Shown piece by piece: positions 1 through 16,477 of a stretch of 64,000 bases of DNA. Origin of the DNA: Alphaproteobacteria bacterium (GTDB lineage: Bacteria; Pseudomonadota; Alphaproteobacteria; MPNO01; UBA830); contig OZ251539.1 of assembly GCA_965243135.1 (NCBI GenBank), positions 5,312,001 through 5,376,000 of the forward strand. Reading direction: 5' to 3'. A program made the translations under genes and the position numbers. A model generated the notes under the pieces. The model did no database searches. It saw nothing but the letters and a program-made list of their open reading frames with translations, and was not told the origin of the DNA. The stretch's first letter is position 1; each line of letters opens with the position of its first letter.

Positions 1-1
1 G

Positions 2-1414
2 GCGCTCGGCCTGCTCGCGCAGGATCTTTTGCCAGTCGGCCGCCTCGAATCCCCGCTCCGTCGTCTCGGTGCCGAACAGGCAATCGAAAAACCGTTCATC
101 TACGGCGCGGTCATACCTATCCGTGACCGTGTTTGCGCTGCTATCCTGAAAATCCGGATTCTCCGGCCCTTGCAGATAGACGAGCGCGGCTCTCCGGAGC
201 ACCTTCCGCGCCTCGCCAGCATGGTCAACCATCTTCTTCGAGAGCATTGCAAGCGGCGTCGGCTCATCGTCATCGTCCGGGTCGGATTCTGCAGTCAACT
301 GCGCAGCGATCGAATACGGCAACGGAATCACCCGCTCGTGCAGGCCCTCCGTCTTGCCCCGCCCGCGAACCATGACGGCCATGTGGATTTCCGAATCCTG
401 GTCGACCTCCACGTTTAGATCCTTTAACGCAAGCGGCGGCAGGAGCTCGCCGCGTTGCAGCAGGATCCTTTGGGCCAAGCGATAATCGAAGCCGCCGGCG
501 CCGACGGTCAGTGCGGACGCGCCCTCTTTGGTCCGATCGACAGGAACCCACGGATCGGCCAGGTTCCCATTCAGTGCTTGGGCGTTCACCCTCGCGTGCT
601 CCGATGGCCTGCCGACCGCGCGAAGCCGCGCGTCCTGACCGACCTTTAGTCGAACGCGGCGGCAGACCTCGATGAAGTAGGGGTCAAGTTCGTCGAGGCT
701 TATCTGTCCGTCGTTGTCCCACGGCTTGAGCCAGGTGAGCGCCAAACCATCTCGTCTTCGGAAGAGACTGTCCCCGGCCCGTCTGAGCACGTCATCCCTT
801 CGGGCGAGCAGCATGCGGCTGGCACGGCAAACGCGCGGCCCCCAGCGCGGCCCCGGTCGCCGATCCACCAAAACCCGGCTGGAAAAGCCACCGTTCATGC
901 GCGCAATACCGTAGTTTTTGGGACCAGAGTAGCCCTGAGTTGTCTGCATGGTCAGCAAGGCGTAAAGCCAATGGTGGGGTGCGCCTCCGGTCGCCTGCGC
1001 CTGTTTGCGATCATGGTTCTTGGCCGTTACCGGAACGTCGAGCATATCCGGCGTGCGGGCGCATTCGTTGAAGCTTCCGATGCATGTTGTCGGCGGCTGC
1101 AGGAACGCTGGTTTCGTTGGGTCGGAGACGGCGAGACTCCACGCCGTGGCGACGCATCTGGGAGTCAGCGCGGCGATCAGGCTGTGCCACTCGTCCGCCT
1201 CCGTCGGCAGGGTCTCCCGGCTCCCGTTGTGCAAGGCGACCGCCCCGAGCTGCGCAAGGAACTGATACCAAGCCTGCGCCTGATGCGCAGCGAGACCGTG
1301 GAAGGAATCGATGGCATCGCCGACGAGCCCGGCGTAGAGCATCGGCAAGGTTACGGAATCGCCGTTGCCGTCTCGAACAACGGGGATTATGGAACAAGTC
1401 AGCAGGTCGTGCAT
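2..1414 (-). CDS. cas8e: Type I-E Cascade large subunit Cas8e/Cse1 (CasA), 3' end runs off the window
   Basis: Absent from the ORF track, consistent with no stop codon in the window. Manual translation from ATG 1414 gives MHDLLTCSIIPV...HQAQAWYQFLAQLG...PAFLQPP...LDVPVTAKNHDRK...GYSGPKNYGIARMNGG, typical Cse1 motifs. Downstream of cas3 on the same strand. Confidence 0.85.
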   Translation of the reverse strand, partial: MHDLLTCSIIPVVRDGNGDSVTLPMLYAGLVGDAIDSFHGLAAHQAQAWYQFLAQLGAVALHNGSRETLPTEADEWHSLIAALTPRCVATAWSLAVSDPTKPAFLQPPTTCIGSFNECARTPDMLDVPVTAKNHDRKQAQATGGAPHHWLYALLTMQTTQGYSGPKNYGIARMNGGFSSRVLVDRRPGPRWGPRVCRASRMLLARRDDVLRRAGDSLFRRRDGLALTWLKPWDNDGQISLDELDPYFIEVCRRVRLKVGQDARLRAVGRPSEHARVNAQALNGNLADPWVPVDRTKEGASALTVGAGGFDYRLAQRILLQRGELLPPLALKDLNVEVDQDSEIHMAVMVRGRGKTEGLHERVIPLPYSIAAQLTAESDPDDDDEPTPLAMLSKKMVDHAGEARKVLRRAALVYLQGPENPDFQDSSANTVTDRYDRAVDERFFDCLFGTETTERGFEAADWQKILREQAER

Positions 1415-1530
1415 GGCTCGGTGCTCTTAAGGGTGGTCGGTCGCTTGATGGCCGGAAAGATGGCGGCCCGCATGCGCCGCCTTGCCATGAGTCGGGCAGG
1501 TCGCTGCGATAATGAACAAGTCGCCATCAT
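1399..1530 (-). CDS. Putative 43-aa leader or toxin peptide (MMATCSLSQRPARLMARRRMRAAIFPAIKRPTTLKSTEPCTTC)
   Basis: Strong SD AAGGAG (1544-1539) 8 nt before ATG-ATG. The ORF overlaps the cas8e start by 16 nt. Confidence 0.4.
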   Translation of the reverse strand: MMATCSLSQRPARLMARRRMRAAIFPAIKRPTTLKSTEPCTTC

Positions 1531-1602
1531 TGACAAATCTCCTTCTGGTTGCAGGTTTCGCGGCAGCGTCCTTACCGCCCAGCATACATGCCTGAGGGAA
1601 AA

Positions 1603-1642
1603 ATTATAACCTGTCATTATACCTGTTAAGAAAAATTTTTTT
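1603..1642 (-). promoter_or_regulatory. Putative promoter toward cas8e and protospacer of the mini-array
   Basis: Two TATAAT boxes on the minus strand (1621-1616, 1608-1603) within a direct repeat ACAGGT(T)ATAAT. On the + strand, AAC (1608-1610) followed by CTGTCATTATACCTGT matches the spacer 5' half. Confidence 0.6.
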
Positions 1643-1643
1643 G

Positions 1644-1672
1644 TTGACCGCGAACCGACGGTGAGATATTCT
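1644..1672 (+). promoter_or_regulatory. Sigma70-type promoter for the mini-array
   Basis: TTGACC-N17-TATTCT with an upstream A/T tract (1631-1642). Predicted start is about 1679, at the base of the repeat-1 hairpin. Confidence 0.65.
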
Positions 1673-1673
1673 G

Positions 1674-1763
1674 GCCTGCCCCGGCCTCTCGGGGATGAAC
1701 CGCTGACGTTATAGCTGTCCATGCAGCCGTTGGTGCTTCCCCCGCATGTGCGGGGACTTGTGG
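1674..1763 (+). CRISPR. Degenerate single-spacer type I-E mini-array (CreR/CreA-like)
   Basis: Repeat 1 GCCTGCCCCGGCCTCTCGGGGATGAACCG (1674-1702), spacer CTGACGTTATAGCTGTCCATGCAGCCGTTGGT (32 nt, 1703-1734), repeat 2 GCTTCCCCCGCATGTGCGGGGACTTGTGG (1735-1763). Both align without gaps to the 29-nt I-E repeat pattern GTGTTCCCCGCnnnnGCGGGGATRAACCG. Period is 61 bp. Confidence 0.85.
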
Positions 1764-1790
1764 AACGCGTAGAGAGCAGGTCGGGAACCA

Positions 1791-4373
1791 TCAATCGTCG
1801 ACTCTTGCCAAGCCCAGACGATCATATAGGTAACGGTGTGCGCCCATCCGGAAGCGAATTTCGCCGTCGGATGCAGAGATTTCCGACGGTTCGGCATCGA
1901 GGGGCAACTCGTTGACCATCCATCCCGGCAGCGTAAACTCCCGAACCCGTGCGCCGAAGGGGCCATGCAGGGGCTCAGGCAGTTCGATTCTACGGTCGTC
2001 CAATCCCAACCGCGTCATGATCGAGCGGTCGTCCTGCGGACAATTTGCGAGCAGAGATTCGAGCCAGTCGAGCAGTACCGAGCGCGCTGTCATGCCCTCG
2101 CCGAGCGCCGCGCCGAGCGCTGTCTCCAAGTGCGCGTCCCACGGCGGGCCGAGCTCTCTCGCGAGTTCGCACAGGCTTTCACCATGCGTCGCGGCCTCGA
2201 CCAGCGCGCGATTGTCGTCCGGGATGTGAATGGCGCCACGTTGCCTCAACCATCGCTCCGTCGCCAACACGCCGATCATGTTTCGGTAAACCCGGCCGAG
2301 GCCCATCGGCACTTGCCCGCGAACCTCGCCCTTCGCGTTGACATATTTGACCAGTTCCTCCGCAGTTGGCGCCAGCACCTCGACCGTCGGCGTCTCGAAG
2401 CCGATTGGGCGGGAGAGAACGTGACGGTGCAACCGGCCGATGCGTTGCAGCAGCACGTCGCCCGGCGCGATGTCCGTAATCAGCCGGTCGGCGCATATGT
2501 CGAGCGATTGCTCCGCCGTCTGCGTGGTCACGGCGACGATGCCAGCTCGAGATTCCTTCCCGAACGCGCGTTCCAGAACCTTATCCAGCTGCCGCCGGTC
2601 TTTCGGCGCGTAGCGACTGTGGTGCGGTGTGGCTACACCGTTGCAACGGAGCAGCGGCGCGCCGATGTCTTCCAATTGCCGAAAGGTATCTTGGGCGTCA
2701 CGCACGGTGTTGCGGATGAACAGCACGGCAGCGCCGTTCTCCGCCTGCCGTTTGACTTCCGCCAAGGCCGAACCGAGCGCCCCGTGATCAAGCAGCCGGA
2801 CGCTCACTCGCTTCTCCCGGCCGTCTCTGGGAAGAGGCCGCAACCCCTCGCCCGTTCGTTGAACGGCCGGGTAGGGCACTGCGGCGGCTTCCGCAAGGGT
2901 TGGCGACTCATGTTTTTCCACCCGTGCGCCGGATGCCAGAAAGCGCAGGCGCGCTACTGCGCCCAATGTCGCCGACATCAGCAGCGCATGGCCGCCGGCG
3001 GCCGAATGCTGATCGAGCACATTGCGCAGAATCTCGGTCATATAGGCGTCCGAGGCGTGCACCTCGTCGATGATCAACAGCAGGCGCAGCATCGGGCTGG
3101 AGCGGAGATGCGCGTGCCTCACCTGCAAACCGCCGAGCAGCAACTGGTCCACTGTCCCGACCATCGCTGCGCCGCTGAGATACCGTTTCGGGCGTTCCAC
3201 GGCCCATGCGCGGTCGACGTCCGTCTCGTCGGGCCAGAGCACCTTGGCCTGTTCCGGCAGGATCCGGCCCTCTTCGGCGTCGACTCGCAGATAGCCAGGA
3301 ACGGCCAACCCCACCGGCGGCGCCTCGTGGCCGAACCATCTTTGCAAGATTTCCGCGATCCGTCGGTGGATCTGCACGGCCGCCGCGCGGGTCGGCAGCG
3401 CGAAATAGAAGCCTTCCACCTCGCCAGCCCGGAACAGCCGAAGGAAATGCAGCACCGCGGCTTCGGTCTTTCCAGATCCGGTTTCCGCTTCCAGGGTCAC
3501 GACCTGCCCGTTCTTGGGCAGCGACGCGTTCCGCAGCGCCGCTTGCGCCGGCCGCGGCGTCGGCAGGTCCGGGAAGAGATCGGCGAAGGCGGTGGGGACC
3601 GTTGTTGCCGCTCGCCGCGCAACGCTCGAATCGAGCCAACGGCTGCGCAGCAGGTTGGCGGCCGCCATGCGTGCCCACGGAATCCGCTCGTTGCCGGTCG
3701 GTGCGCCTTGATGGGGAAACATAAAAACGCTCTGGTCCGAGCCGAGCCAGTCTGCGAGCGTGATCAGGCCAGCCAAAGCATGCATGAAGCGCGGCTCGGA
3801 CGGCAAAGTCGCCGCGGCTTCGTTGAACGCCAGAGGGAACATGGCTTTGAGAGCGTTCGCCGTTTCGGCGAGCGCCGACATGGGCGAATAGCCGTTCCGT
3901 TCGTTCCAGAGGCTCGGGTCCGGCCGGGCGCCGCCGTACGGCAAGCTTCCGTGATGGGCGAGCACGGCGTTCCACCAGGTAGCCTCGTCCTCTTCGTTGG
4001 CGAACCAGCACTTCCAGTCCCTTCTACGCAGGGCCTTGCGAACGCCTTTTGACAGCGGGCCTGTCGACGAATCGCAGACGATGGACCAGATCGGACCGAT
4101 ATGTCCGGCGTCCGGCTTTTCCCGGTGCAGCTTTGCCTGGAAACCATGATTGACTTTGCCAGCGTCGTGCAAACCGATGAAGAAGCCCGTTCTCTCGATA
4201 TCAATGACGTTGAGTCGACGTTTCGCCAACGCCTCCAGTCTGCGCCGAATGGTCGCAACGTTCATCAGCCCCTCGGCGACAGCGGCGACGTCGATGCAGT
4301 GATCGATCAGCTCGAGGAAAAGGGAAGAATCCGTCTCCGACTCTCGTACCGATTTGGCCCAGGCAACGCTCAT
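1791..4373 (-). CDS. cas3: CRISPR-associated HD nuclease/SF2 helicase Cas3 (type I-E)
   Basis: WAK, HCIDVAAV, LHDAGK, LAHHG and LADWLGS (HD domain); AETGSGKTE, DEVH, MSAT and QRIGRLHRH (helicase). GAGGG RBS before ATG 4373. Confidence 0.95.
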   Translation of the reverse strand: MSVAWAKSVRESETDSSLFLELIDHCIDVAAVAEGLMNVATIRRRLEALAKRRLNVIDIERTGFFIGLHDAGKVNHGFQAKLHREKPDAGHIGPIWSIVCDSSTGPLSKGVRKALRRRDWKCWFANEEDEATWWNAVLAHHGSLPYGGARPDPSLWNERNGYSPMSALAETANALKAMFPLAFNEAAATLPSEPRFMHALAGLITLADWLGSDQSVFMFPHQGAPTGNERIPWARMAAANLLRSRWLDSSVARRAATTVPTAFADLFPDLPTPRPAQAALRNASLPKNGQVVTLEAETGSGKTEAAVLHFLRLFRAGEVEGFYFALPTRAAAVQIHRRIAEILQRWFGHEAPPVGLAVPGYLRVDAEEGRILPEQAKVLWPDETDVDRAWAVERPKRYLSGAAMVGTVDQLLLGGLQVRHAHLRSSPMLRLLLIIDEVHASDAYMTEILRNVLDQHSAAGGHALLMSATLGAVARLRFLASGARVEKHESPTLAEAAAVPYPAVQRTGEGLRPLPRDGREKRVSVRLLDHGALGSALAEVKRQAENGAAVLFIRNTVRDAQDTFRQLEDIGAPLLRCNGVATPHHSRYAPKDRRQLDKVLERAFGKESRAGIVAVTTQTAEQSLDICADRLITDIAPGDVLLQRIGRLHRHVLSRPIGFETPTVEVLAPTAEELVKYVNAKGEVRGQVPMGLGRVYRNMIGVLATERWLRQRGAIHIPDDNRALVEAATHGESLCELARELGPPWDAHLETALGAALGEGMTARSVLLDWLESLLANCPQDDRSIMTRLGLDDRRIELPEPLHGPFGARVREFTLPGWMVNELPLDAEPSEISASDGEIRFRMGAHRYLYDRLGLARVDD

Positions 4374-4519
4374 TTTCAAAATCCCTCAACTCATTCGGAG
4401 CGTGCACCTTAGCGCGTATTTCACTGGATCCAATCTGGCGGAGGCGTTTGCGACGCGCCATTATTGTCAGCTATCCATCCGGTCGGGCGCCCCGCAATTC
4501 AGCTGGCCGCCCGCCGACA

Positions 4520-4700
4520 GATTCGCAAGGGTCTCGCAGAAGGTCTCGAGCAGGACCGGACGCAATGCGTAGCGGCGCTCCCCATAGTCGGGCAGTCGTG
4601 ATTCGATCAGCGCGAGGATATGGGGACGGGAGGTTGTCGATCCGAATTCAGGGCAGGGCTTGGTGTCGTTGATTGCCAGCGGCATGTTGCGGCAGCGGCT
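4520..4700 (-). pseudogene. DUF4338-type gene fragment
   Basis: Encodes HILALIESRLPDYGERRYALRPVLLETFCE, close to HILALVERCLPDDWDRRYALRPVLLETFCE in 40223-41110. Confidence 0.75.
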
Positions 4701-5114
4701 CCCGGTCGAGATTGTCCGGCTGACCCCTGCGCCGGGATCGGAGGCGGATACTTGGAAGATAGCCCGCACCGAGCGTAGCTCTATTTTTTGCCGACCCCGC
4801 CGCTGAAAGCGTCCCTCGCAGGCTCGACGGCAACCTCAGGCAGCACGGGAACCTCCAAGAAGTTCCATGCCGCCGGATCAGCGCCAGGAAGTCCAAGCTT
4901 TTGGGTAACCACATGATTTAGTGGAATTTCTTCACCGGAAAGACCAGCATGTGGTCTTCTCCGACCAAGCAGGTAGACCAGATCTGCTACCTAAAATTAT
5001 GTCAATAAAGGGCTTTTATTGGAAGAAAAAATTTGCCGCAGATTGTCGACACCGTCGGGTTGACCGGAAAGCCGTATTCGGCGAAATTGAATCTCTCGAA
5101 GGAACAACAACACC

Positions 5115-5333
5115 ATGAACTCAGACGGAAACGCGACCCAGACTTCGAAAAATGCTGGCAGGAACATTTCGGCCGCACCTTCGATTGTCTTGCTCAATCG
5201 AAGGCTCGGCACCTCGCCCGCTCTCCGGATGTTGACGCCGTCCGAAGTCGCCTTGCTGCGGCAGTGCGCGAAGGAAGCTTCCGAGATTGCTGGCGAGGTC
5301 CTTGCGAACGAAGGCGGCACGTCGGAAACTTGA
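5115..5333 (+). CDS. Small hypothetical protein (72 aa, MLTPSEVALLRQ helix)
   Basis: AAGGA upstream and ATGA overlap with the preceding short ORF. Confidence 0.4.
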   Translation: MNSDGNATQTSKNAGRNISAAPSIVLLNRRLGTSPALRMLTPSEVALLRQCAKEASEIAGEVLANEGGTSET

Positions 5334-5348
5334 CCCGTCTTCAGCACC

Positions 5349-5556
5349 GTAAGCGTTCGCTGCCGGGGGGACGAAAAAATTTCGTCTGGGGACTGGACAT
5401 CCGGTCCTGCTTGAGCCCTTCTGCGAAAGCCCCCGCTTCACGGGCGCCCGCTACCGCGCAGCCGGCCCGGGTCGGCAAACACAGGGCCGCAGCGGGCTCG
5501 ACGTGAAAAACGCGCTGCCGGTCAAGGAAGCAGGTTCCCGGGTAGCGAACGCTTAC
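5349..5556. mobile_element. 208-bp MITE-like internally deleted element with IS66-like terminal inverted repeats
   Basis: Left end GTAAGCGTTCGCTGCC, right end (reverse complement) GTAAGCGTTCGCTACC. Interior 5401-5527 is homologous to 40903-41043 (3' part of the DUF4338 gene). No target duplication seen. Confidence 0.75.
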
Positions 5557-5780
5557 CGTTGTTCTTCCGGCGCTTGACTGGCGGCAACAACCTGACCTCG
5601 TGACCGAGCTTCGCGATCTTTCGGCTCCAGTGGCGCAGCGCGGGCTGCGCACCTCGGCTGTTGCTTCGGGAAGTGCGACACTTGGCCGAGGGTCCGGCGA
5701 AACGCGACAAACCCGTCCGCTCGGGTGCCAACTCCGCTTCGCCGAGTCGATCCGCTAACCTGTTCCGTCCTCTCCTCGAT
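5557..5780 (-). pseudogene. IS110-family transposase remnant
   Basis: Encodes RHWSRKIAKLGHEVRLLPPVKRRKNN, resembling the IS110 HYWARE..LGHEVRL.PP..VK.KND segment. Cut by the element at 5349-5556. Confidence 0.7.
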
Positions 5781-6552
5781 ATGTTGTGGTTTGGTCTGAC
5801 GGTGCCAACGCGATGCCTCGGGAGGACGAAGCTCCCGAATTTTGTAACAAACTGGCGCTCTCCCCGATTCGCCTCCGCGCTATGCGCTCCGGCCAGGGAG
5901 AGCCTATCCGCCGGAAAAAAGGTGGTTGATGAGGTACAGGGCCTCATCGCGGTTGACAGGGGGGAAGCCTTATGTTACGTTCAGGGACACTCATCTAGGC
6001 ATAACCCAATGAAAAATATAACTTATTTGCCGCATGTGGAGCGTTAGACTGCATGGGAAAATTTTTCACCTATAGTGTTGACATCGGCGAAATAAACCTG
6101 AAACCTGACAATCGCTATCTCGGAGGACCGGAAAATGGAAGCATTCATGGAACGCACCGGGCAGCGCTATAGCCCCCCAATCGACCGGGCGCACGCGACG
6201 TTTGGCATCGTGGCGCTCTGGCGTTTTTCCGACTCGCGCCGGTAGAAGCCGGCAGACGGCCCACAGCAGGGGTTGCCGACAATCACGCGATGTCGGCAAC
6301 GGGACGCTTGCCGCTGTTCGGTATGAAGGTGCGTGGGTCTGTGGGTCTTTCCTGGACGATGGCAACTGCAACCTACCGGCCTTCGAAGGCTTCTCCGGCT
6401 TCTGCAACAAGATCGGGAAACCGAAACCTTTCGTCGGAACCTGAACCCTTGAAATGCTGCCCTGCTATGTTGAGAGCGCGACATCGCAATCCAACATTGA
6501 TGCAGGGACGTTTTGCAGCGTGCGGTAAGCTGGAATGTAAGGAGATAATGCT

Positions 6553-15553: not shown

Positions 15554-15844
15554 ATGATTCGCATAGGCATTCTGGTCTGCTTGGCCGTGTGCGTTTCGAT
15601 TGCCGCAAAAGCAGAATCGACAGTAAATCAAAATGCGGGAATATACGCTAAAGAACAGGATCTCGTGCAGAGCTTCAAGAACTGCATTGAAGACGGAAAA
15701 TCCTGGAAAATCTGTAACGATGAGGTCTTGGGGAAAAGTCGGTTGCAATTATTGTCGGCGGGAAAGAAATTACCTTCAGGGGGAAGCGTTTGGGGACCGT
15801 CCGGATTTGAAGTCTTTCTGGAGAGCTTGAGGGTGAATCGATAG
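15554..15844 (+). CDS. Small secreted hypothetical protein, low GC
   Basis: AAGGAG RBS, signal peptide ending AKA, two Cys in the mature part. Confidence 0.7.
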   Translation: MIRIGILVCLAVCVSIAAKAESTVNQNAGIYAKEQDLVQSFKNCIEDGKSWKICNDEVLGKSRLQLLSAGKKLPSGGSVWGPSGFEVFLESLRVNR

Positions 15845-16477
15845 TGAAAGCGGCGCGGTTCGAAAGCGTTGTTCGGTTGGGACTAGTTGCAGTTTTTGCG
15901 GCTGCATAGCAGTGGGTTGGTTGACAGGATTAAGCGGCCCTGATCCTACGGTGCTCGCATCAATGCTTCCGGTAGGGATTTCGGCTGCCGATACGGCTAT
16001 AAAGATGCAGAATGGCAGATTCGTCGGACGAGAGAATTGCGTTCTATTGAGTTTGAGCGTGTTGATTTTCTGCGGATAATTTTATCATGGAACGGAAAAG
16101 GGCCGTAATGATAGAGATGTGGGGGCAGAGCGGACGAGTGCCAAAGCGGTGATTCTTCGTGAAATCTATTTGCGCGAGTGCTCCGAGACGGAAGCGCGCG
16201 TTAATTTGCTGTGTAACTAACCCGAGCTGCCGGCCGCACGAAACCGTTCCGCGAATCGAAGACTTTTTCGCGGCGGCGTTTGCCGTTCGAGAATTCGGGG
16301 ACGTGACGCTGAGGGCTGCCCCGTATAGCCCTGTCTTCGCGCCGCGACGCCCGAACGCGGAACGGTCATTTGGGCGAGCGGCGCGAGGCCGGGAGAACCA
16401 CCCCCAAAGTTACATGCTACGGGGTGAACAGGCACCGAATTCATGAGAGTTTGTTCTGGGAAAAGGATTCCCGCGGT

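Follow-up and report, generated by a model that had tools for sequence, protein, structure and literature searches.

A putative CreR-type regulatory mini-CRISPR in the cas3-cas8e gap of an alphaproteobacterial type I-E system

Introduction

CreR RNAs produced from degenerate mini-CRISPRs have been described for type I-B, I-E and V-A systems by Liu et al. (10.1101/2023.03.10.532045). Here, a candidate for this class was analysed, namely a two-repeat mini-array between cas3 and cas8e of a type I-E system, carried on a 64,000-nucleotide (nt) stretch of the genome of an Alphaproteobacteria bacterium. This whole stretch (GenBank OZ251539.1) is referred to as the window; on contig C1 of its own genome it corresponds to G000:C1:5312001-5376000, and coordinates without a prefix are window coordinates. 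A sequence-only reading of this DNA had proposed that Cascade represses its own operon by means of the mini-array.

In the Salmonella enterica I-E example, 15 consecutive nt of the CreR guide match a site behind the canonical AAG approximately 140 base pairs (bp) upstream of casA. Repression was 8.6-fold in E. coli and was relieved by extra CRISPR RNA (crRNA) and by AcrIE8, and CreR was proposed to act in autorepression of Cascade, with crRNA load and anti-CRISPRs as the signals sensed (10.1101/2023.03.10.532045). Shmakov et al. (10.1101/2023.03.03.530964) reported mini-arrays in approximately 19% of bacterial I-E loci, placed in the gap between cas3 and cas8. They run opposite to cas3 and have a target in the cas8 promoter beside a protospacer-adjacent motif (PAM). 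The better-kept repeat adjoins the seed, some spacers are shortened, mismatches at every sixth position are tolerated (a point made for I-F1), and the I-E mini-arrays are in general gained and lost sporadically. The worked I-E example of that study is from E. coli, with AAG, and its experiment concerned a Pseudomonas I-F1 array (10.1101/2023.03.03.530964). Phages have been found to copy such regulatory guides (10.1101/2024.10.29.618823).

The window element resembles the Salmonella CreR in being a degenerate mini-CRISPR in the cas3-casA gap, with the 5' handle kept in the first pseudo-repeat (psiR1) and part of the 3' handle in the second (psiR2). Both have a partial, PAM-proximal guide match upstream of casA and no obvious toxin. 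Sequence similarity between the two is confined to the repeat-derived parts. Where the Salmonella guide has 15 nt, AAG, a distance of approximately 140 bp and a measured 8.6-fold effect, the window has 13/16 with a seed mismatch, AAC, approximately 200 bp and sequence evidence only. With the mini-arrays of Shmakov et al. the window element shares location, orientation, a target in the predicted cas8 promoter and sixth-position mismatches; unlike the examples in the parts of that preprint used here, the clade of the window has an AAT or AAC flank and a recurrent mismatch at position 4/5 or 9. Four differences from the published examples can be named: the AAC/AAT flank, the mismatch at a seed position, the host lineage and a small comparative series.

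Two other systems are alike in principle. CreTA of the Haloarcula hispanica I-B system likewise has a degenerate guide, partial pairing at a promoter without Cas3 cleavage, and divergent guide and target. However, its CreA silences a toxin RNA, CreT, whereas the target in the window is the predicted promoter of the effector operon itself and no toxin is established. The tracr-L of Cas9 is likewise a natural non-canonical guide with short complementarity by which an effector represses its own promoter, but it belongs to a class 2, single-protein system and has a different RNA architecture.

On its predicted anatomy, its location, its partial complementarity and the complete effector encoded beside it, the window element is assigned to the CreR/mini-array class. 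The I-E class, its location and its frequency have already been published, and the element is therefore not a new kind of element. The sequence-only reading had called the general class known, which is correct but understated, as I-E mini-arrays at the cas8 promoter were already described and, for Salmonella, tested. No paper on this particular clade of loci was found in a literature search that did not cover the supplementary tables of Liu et al. and Shmakov et al.

Results

Structure of the mini-array

The gap between cas3 and cas8e is 376 nt long (1415-1790). Both genes are on the - strand, and the mini-array lies between them on the + strand, antisense to each. Its parts are as follows.

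1644-1672, + strand: predicted mini-array promoter, TTGACC-17-TATTCT, from a consensus scan
About 1679, + strand: predicted start of the mini-array, at the foot of the psiR1 hairpin
1674-1701, + strand: psiR1, a degenerate repeat; 21/28 positions as in the main-array repeat, 11 of the last 12 nt in agreement
1679-1694, + strand: psiR1 hairpin, present in the minimum-energy fold
1695-1702, + strand: 5' handle of the product, ATGAACCG (handle plus one nt)
1703-1734, + strand: psiS, a spacer-like guide of 32 nt; its match to the target is limited to nt 1-16
1735-1762, + strand: psiR2, a degenerate repeat; 20/28 positions as in the main-array repeat, hairpin in the minimum-energy fold
1695-1755, + strand: predicted 61-nt crRNA-like RNA, made up of an 8-nt handle, the 32-nt guide and a 21-nt hairpin

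The anatomy put forward in the sequence-only reading was thus recovered throughout: two degenerate I-E repeats around a 32-nt spacer; a first repeat eroded at its 5' end that keeps hairpin and handle; a second that keeps its hairpin and is eroded after it; the handle, guide and hairpin needed for a 61-nt crRNA; and a promoter-like site ahead of them. The psiR1 handle reads ATGAACC where the main repeat has ATGTACC. psiR2 shares its first 12 nt with the main repeat and retains the 6-bp stem, with divergence in the loop and the 3' part. The pseudo-repeats appear to derive from the genome's own I-E array repeat, and decay appears to have spared exactly the parts required for one crRNA.

Cas6e cuts at the 3' base of each repeat hairpin, from which the 61-nt product at 1695-1755 is predicted. 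Both hairpins are present in the minimum-energy fold of the mini-array (-37.6 kcal/mol, z = -2.0; 6/200 shuffled sequences fold as well). The promoter scan of the region returned two sites, where shuffled sequences averaged 0.3, and a scan of 1350-1850 found no terminator-like site. A full-length origin of psiS in a phage or plasmid, which the sequence-only reading had allowed for, was found in none of the phage, plasmid and viral collections. Against viral contigs, with any base allowed at every sixth position, there were 0 matches; phages (E at least 3) and plasmids (E at least 9) gave only chance-level partial matches, the metagenome collection not being scanned.

Match between guide and target

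The following two features were required for the comparison of guide and target.

1611-1628, + strand: target (protospacer, non-target strand); 13/15 informative positions match
1608-1610, + strand: trinucleotide AAC in the PAM position, non-target strand

Guide nt 1-16 (1703-1718) agree with 1611-1626 at 13/16 positions, with mismatches at 4, 6 and 12 and with AAC in front, exactly as first reported. Over the whole of 1611-1628 the mismatches are at 4, 6, 12, 17 and 18, and there is no matching past guide nt 16. For scoring, the 15 positions of guide nt 1-18 that are not multiples of six were used (informative positions). In the 373-nt region searched, the target scores 13/15 and the next-best sites 9/15. 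Shuffled guides reached 13/15 in this region in 1/5000 trials, and in 0/5000 if an AAN flank was required.

Across the 6.1-Mb genome (both strands, 12.2 million positions), three sites score at least 13/15 besides the guide's own DNA, and only one of the three, the target 92 nt upstream of the guide, has an AAN flank. For the guide's own DNA the flank is CCG, where the handle ends, and the guide is therefore not directed against itself. The patch that contains the target is 51 nt long with 24% G+C, and two TATAAT boxes occur in it. In a scan for partial targets, the G+C-rich spacers of an orphan array elsewhere in this genome (L041, described below) had dozens to hundreds of 13/15 sites each, which allows no conclusion on their targets; the AT-rich psiS, with three such sites, is unusual.

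An AAG flank together with 12/15 matches occurs at two genome sites. At one of them (G000:C1:1416548, - strand) guide nt 1-8 match perfectly and the score over nt 1-18 is 12/15; this site is a possible secondary target of the regulatory guide.

Cognate guide-target pairs in related loci

The intergenic DNA (1415-1790) had no detectable relative among 60 related genomes beyond the window's own genome, and the comparison was therefore made through Cas8e. A Cas8e search with one genome per species gave 37 loci at 31-80% identity from several phyla. A hairpin scan covered all 37 upstream regions, 17 of which were also read directly.

A mini-array in the same place and orientation was found in seven other loci (L003, L004, L009, L011, L012, L013 and L017). 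In each, a spacer separates psiR1, the end of which reads (A/T)TGGACCN, from psiR2, and the whole is antisense to cas3 and cas8e. The main repeat ends in ATGGACC in four of these genomes, and psiR1 therefore bears the true handle in those four.

Six of the seven have a cognate target that scores 13-14/15, on the strand of the guide and directly after AAT, the runner-up sites scoring 8-10. The distance from the guide to its upstream target is 91-102 nt, or 175 nt in L013, and shuffled guides reached the target scores in 0-6/5000 trials. The guides agree with one another at 4-12/15 positions. When every guide was scored against every target, cognate pairs gave 13-14 and non-cognate pairs 4-12, so that every guide scored highest with its own target and every target with its own guide. 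Covariation of spacer and promoter, proposed earlier as a check on the autorepression idea, is thus seen: across the seven loci, the window included, the putative guides and their candidate targets covary. What remains of the modules once guide, target, handle and hairpins are set aside can barely be aligned (31-58% identity).

Mismatches were counted over the same seven pairs (the six loci and the window). At positions 6, 12 and 18 they occupy 19/21 cells, and at the other fifteen positions 13/105 (Fisher p = 4e-12, a value that is overstated because the loci are kin). This pattern is what a guide read by a type I Cascade, with every sixth base flipped out, should leave.

Each mini-array was also folded alone, because loop lengths differ and the stems are out of register in an alignment. 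Both hairpins were present in the minimum-energy fold of 7/8 mini-arrays, and the stem sequences vary between loci (GG/CC, GA/UC and AU/AU at pairs 5-6). In 3/8 mini-arrays the guide is approximately 20 nt long instead of 32 (L003:3334-3416, L009:3273-3355 and L017:3266-3348, all on - strands). The shortening is exactly 12 nt, i.e. two Cas7 steps, which suggests a smaller Cascade on these regulatory guides.

Three further loci have other arrangements. L029, with a Cas8e 40% identical, has a two-repeat mini-array in sense orientation approximately 20-105 nt upstream of cas8e, with the handle ATAGTCC. L027 and L028 each have a single repeat-like hairpin approximately 20 nt upstream of cas8e.

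Position of the target in the cas8e promoter

Promoters on the cas strand were predicted with a simple sigma-70 consensus scan and are to be read as predictions only. Counting the window, 5/7 loci have their target between a predicted -35 and a predicted -10 of that strand. The sites are listed below; X4 and X7 are the natural variants described in the next section.

1603-1632, - strand, window: predicted cas8e promoter, -35 TTCTTA (1632-1627), 18-nt spacer, -10 TATAAT (1608-1603)
L004: predicted promoter TTGAAA-17-TAATAT
L009: predicted promoter TTGACA-17-TACACT
L012: predicted promoter TTTACA-17-CATATT
L013: predicted promoter TTTCCA-18-TATTGT
1621-1616, - strand, window: second TATAAT, located within the target; X4 and X7 have another base for its last T (1616 A>C on the + strand)
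1536-1509, - strand, window: alternative promoter-like site TTGTCA-16-CATTAT, nearer cas8e; not conserved in X7

The PAM adjoins or overlaps the predicted -10 in the window, L004, L009, L012 and L013. In the window, the target is located approximately 200 bp upstream of cas8e and occupies the spacer and 2 nt of the -35 of the predicted promoter. The sequence-only reading had the target cover a TATAAT box facing cas8e. That box is present at 1621-1616, but the working -10 is more likely at 1608-1603, because 5/7 targets fill the spacer between -35 and -10 and because X4 and X7 carry TATAAG inside the target.

Variation between strains

Contigs of four DNA sequencing runs (X1, X4, X7 and X8) were compared with the window over 1300-1900. 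Run X1 is identical to the window and may be its source. Run X8, which belongs to another study, shows no difference in the parts covered. Run X4, a sponge metagenome with DNA 99% identical, has three differences over the approximately 570 nt covered (1300-1515 and 1523-1900). These are at 1616, 1622 and 1627, on the 378-nt piece 1523-1900 and all inside the 18-nt target, and correspond to guide positions 6, 12 and 17; the X4 base at 1627 (position 17) restores a base pair. Over the stretch covered, the target thus holds the only differences between these near-identical strains.

Run X7 is approximately 93% identical and shares all three X4 changes. In X7, 12 nt inserted behind 1604 split the PAM-side -10 and leave a TATATT in that place, so that X4 and X7 both keep a -10-like hexamer at the PAM side. 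X7 differs from the window by 31 substitutions in 1415-1790, with zero in 1687-1768 (p about 0.0005 under uniform spread), a segment that spans the 3' half of the psiR1 hairpin, the handle, the entire guide and psiR2. Purifying selection on the putative RNA-coding part is indicated, because the 31 substitutions all fall elsewhere in the gap.

Because the distant X7 shares the X4 variant, the target allele of the window looks derived, with one base pair lost and a perfect second TATAAT gained within the Cascade footprint. In the window allele, the segment is a closer tandem copy of the adjacent ACAGGTTATAAT, and it is here that the second perfect TATAAT was created.

Sequence adjoining the repeats and targets

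All seven cognate targets have an AAN flank (AAT in six, AAC in the window), compared with a background of 5.7%. In E. coli, the base after the repeat is PAM-derived. In the main array of this genome the first spacer base (n = 77) is C in 36, G in 20, T in 19 and A in 2, and in five arrays of the clade 243/245 spacers have C, G or T directly after the repeat. This composition would be compatible with AAC and AAT if the base is PAM-derived here.

Outside protospacers of the 77 spacers were sought in the genome itself, in 50,697 phage records and in 78 genomes of the order, and none was found. The matches returned consisted of repeat-like arrays, chance-level partial matches and a self-match of spacer 43, the flank of which is not AAN.

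Discussion

Proposed mechanism

The element is probably a CreR-type regulatory mini-CRISPR of a complete I-E system, giving a crRNA-like RNA (crlRNA) for Cascade autorepression. The + strand promoter at 1644-1672 would transcribe psiR1-psiS-psiR2, antisense to cas3. Cutting by Cas6e at the base of both hairpins would release the 61-nt RNA (1695-1755), with a near-canonical 8-nt 5' handle and a 3' hairpin, and this RNA would assemble into Cascade as an ordinary crRNA does. Cascade would then recognise AAC at 1608-1610 and guide nt 1-16 would pair with the - strand at 1611-1626; in the duplex, positions 6 and 12 would be flipped out and position 4 would be a true mismatch. The bound site would be in the AT-rich patch that most likely contains the cas8e promoter, between the -35 at 1632-1627 and the -10 at 1608-1603 and over the second TATAAT. 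Cascade at this site would exclude RNA polymerase and lower transcription of cas8e-cse2-cas7-cas5-cas6e.

Partial R-loops do not recruit Cas3. As pairing would end half-way, the R-loop would be incomplete, Cas3 would not be licensed and the chromosome would stay uncut. The result would be negative feedback, in which the promoter is freed when Cascade is scarce, inhibited by an anti-CRISPR or occupied by the 77 ordinary crRNAs. The proposal that Cascade represses its own operon is supported by the unique match, by covariation, by the mismatches at 6/12/18 and by the invariant crRNA part.

Several observations weigh against this interpretation. The assignment of AAC/AAT as PAM draws on two things only, recurrence of the flank and composition of the base after the repeat. 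All seven pairs have at least one mismatch at a position that is not flipped out (4, 5 or 9). Position 4 lies within the seed of E. coli Cascade, and a mismatch there occurs in the window, L004 and L012. Binding may therefore be weak and tunable, or the pairing may be overrated here. The predicted cas8e promoter scores low (9/12), and the promoter-like site at 1536-1509 is downstream of the target, where it would escape occlusion, though not a roadblock. The L003 mini-array is intact and there is no target for it in its 8.4-kb locus (best site 11/15); here the target seems to have been deleted, because the gap between cas8e and the mini-array is approximately 270 nt shorter than in its relative L004. 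The closest Cas8e relatives, L002 (80%) and L018 (75%), have a short cas3-cas8e gap and no mini-array, and the module is therefore dispensable and gained or lost sporadically. Finally, the loci share kinship and counts across them are not independent.

An extension of the autorepression reading, which we regard as doubtful, is that in this Cas8e clade the set-point is tuned by a deliberately imperfect duplex and retuned between strains. It would account for the mismatches at positions 4/5/9, for the guides shortened by 12 nt and for the confinement of the X4 differences to the target. If it holds, target-site alleles would set different Cascade levels in co-occurring strains.

Alternative explanations

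Instead of or besides autoregulation, the guide could belong to a CreTA-like addiction module, silencing a toxic RNA or open reading frame (ORF) so that loss of Cascade poisons the cell. The candidate is the following ORF.

1530-1399, - strand: upstream ORF, 43 codons; strong Shine-Dalgarno sequence AGAAGGAGA, 7 nt, then ATG ATG

The ORF lies on the cas strand downstream of the targeted promoter and ends 13 nt inside cas8e, the own ribosome site of which is weak. Its codons 4-7 (ACT TGT TCA TTA) are very rare in this genome, at 0.2-1.8 per 1000 codons. Published CreT toxins, with a strong ribosome site followed by rare codons, resemble it, and L004, read by eye, has a strong ribosome site and a 14-codon ORF at the same position. 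However, in four of the seven loci with a cognate target the promoter, again as read by eye, runs straight to cas8e with no upstream ORF. L002, which has no mini-array, has the same ribosome site and ATG in front of an ORF of 4 codons. Conservation of the peptide does not extend to X7, where the first six codons differ by two amino acids and indels follow, and the AT-rich codons overlap the promoter-like site, which would explain their composition. An addiction module is accordingly judged quite unlikely. The ORF could serve translational coupling to cas8e, be CreT-like or be nothing; as a conserved peptide or CreT-like toxin it is unsupported across the loci.

Still less probable is that the mini-array is a functionless remnant of a CRISPR array or leader, the likeness of its spacer to the AT-rich patch being due to chance or local duplication. 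The degeneracy of both repeats (21/28 and 20/28), the closest Cas8e relatives without a mini-array, the L003 mini-array without a target and the seed mismatch at guide position 4 would all fit a remnant. Against it, no second site in the genome matches as well with an AAN flank, and each of six other loci has a cognate guide and target of its own, matched in the same register and covarying. A mismatch periodicity of 6 nt is not expected from duplication, the segment 1687-1768 is free of substitutions against 31 in the rest of the gap, and decay has spared exactly the parts of one crRNA.

It is equally improbable that the RNA acts otherwise, as antisense to the 3' end of cas3 mRNA (transcription may enter cas3 in antisense, with no terminator in 1350-1850), as a decoy repeat sequestering Cas6e or subunits of Cascade, or as a guide to other chromosomal sites (such as the two AAG-flanked sites at 12/15, one with guide nt 1-8 perfect), since these actions leave unexplained both the covarying, AAN-flanked target 91-175 nt upstream in seven loci and the 6-nt mismatch periodicity, and the other chromosomal sites score below the promoter target.

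Implications

If Cascade autorepression is confirmed, a non-enterobacterial example will be added to the CreR and regulatory mini-array class. No new question is opened, as the mechanism, the I-E location and the frequency are already published. The seven natural guide/target pairs, from several phyla, would display the rules of Cascade: an AAN flank, flipped positions 6/12/18 and pairing to approximately 17 nt. Such a set would be useful for establishing which seed imperfections and PAMs are tolerated by a repressing, non-cleaving Cascade, and whether guides shorter by 12 nt build smaller complexes.

Other features of the locus and genome

The genes on either side of the mini-array are as follows.

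4379-1791, - strand: cas3, 862 amino acids; Pfam Cas3_HD, DEAD and Cas3-like_C_2
1414-2, - strand: cas8e (cse1); Pfam CRISPR_Cse1; codons 1-471 of 518 are in the window

To the left of the window, cas8e (518 amino acids in total) is followed by cse2, cas7, cas5, cas6e, cas1 and cas2, as identified with Pfam. Cas6e, the processing nuclease, was recognised as PF08798. The type I-E effector module is thus complete by Pfam (Cse1, Cse2, Cas7, Cas5 and Cas6e, with Cas1, Cas2 and Cas3). The main I-E array, on the cas strand after cas2 and outside the window, has 78 repeats with a period of 61 nt, the repeats being 28 nt and the spacers (n = 77) 33 nt long; the handle of its repeat is ATGTACC + N. The genome is 6.1 Mb with 65% G+C, and a listing of sequencing runs places the window DNA mainly in sponge metagenomes, with no RNA run among those listed. 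An Rfam scan of 1-6000 with E up to 1 gave zero families.

Spacer 43 of the main array is identical (33/33) to the chromosome of the same genome at G000:C1:4133743-4133775, outside the window. The matching site is in an ORF with DHO_dh and 4Fe-4S domains that is kept in six other genomes of the order. Its flank is AG followed by the first spacer base A, and spacer 43 is one of only two main-array spacers that start with A. As a perfect self-targeting spacer, it is evidently tolerated.

The orphan array (locus L041) is located at G000:C1 about 4812990-4813190, on the - strand and remote from cas genes. It has four I-E-like repeats with a period of 61 nt and the handle ATGTACC or ATGTAGC. The last repeat directly adjoins the ribosome site and ATG of a gene, and a 29/32 copy of one of its spacers recurs at genome position 3258390.

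The main array also matched six places in phage JX006077.1 (Saccharomonospora phage PIS 136), at 15675-15885 and approximately 69% identity, by way of its repeats. The matched places are annotated as 'hypothetical protein', and the region may be a phage-borne cluster of I-E-like repeats.

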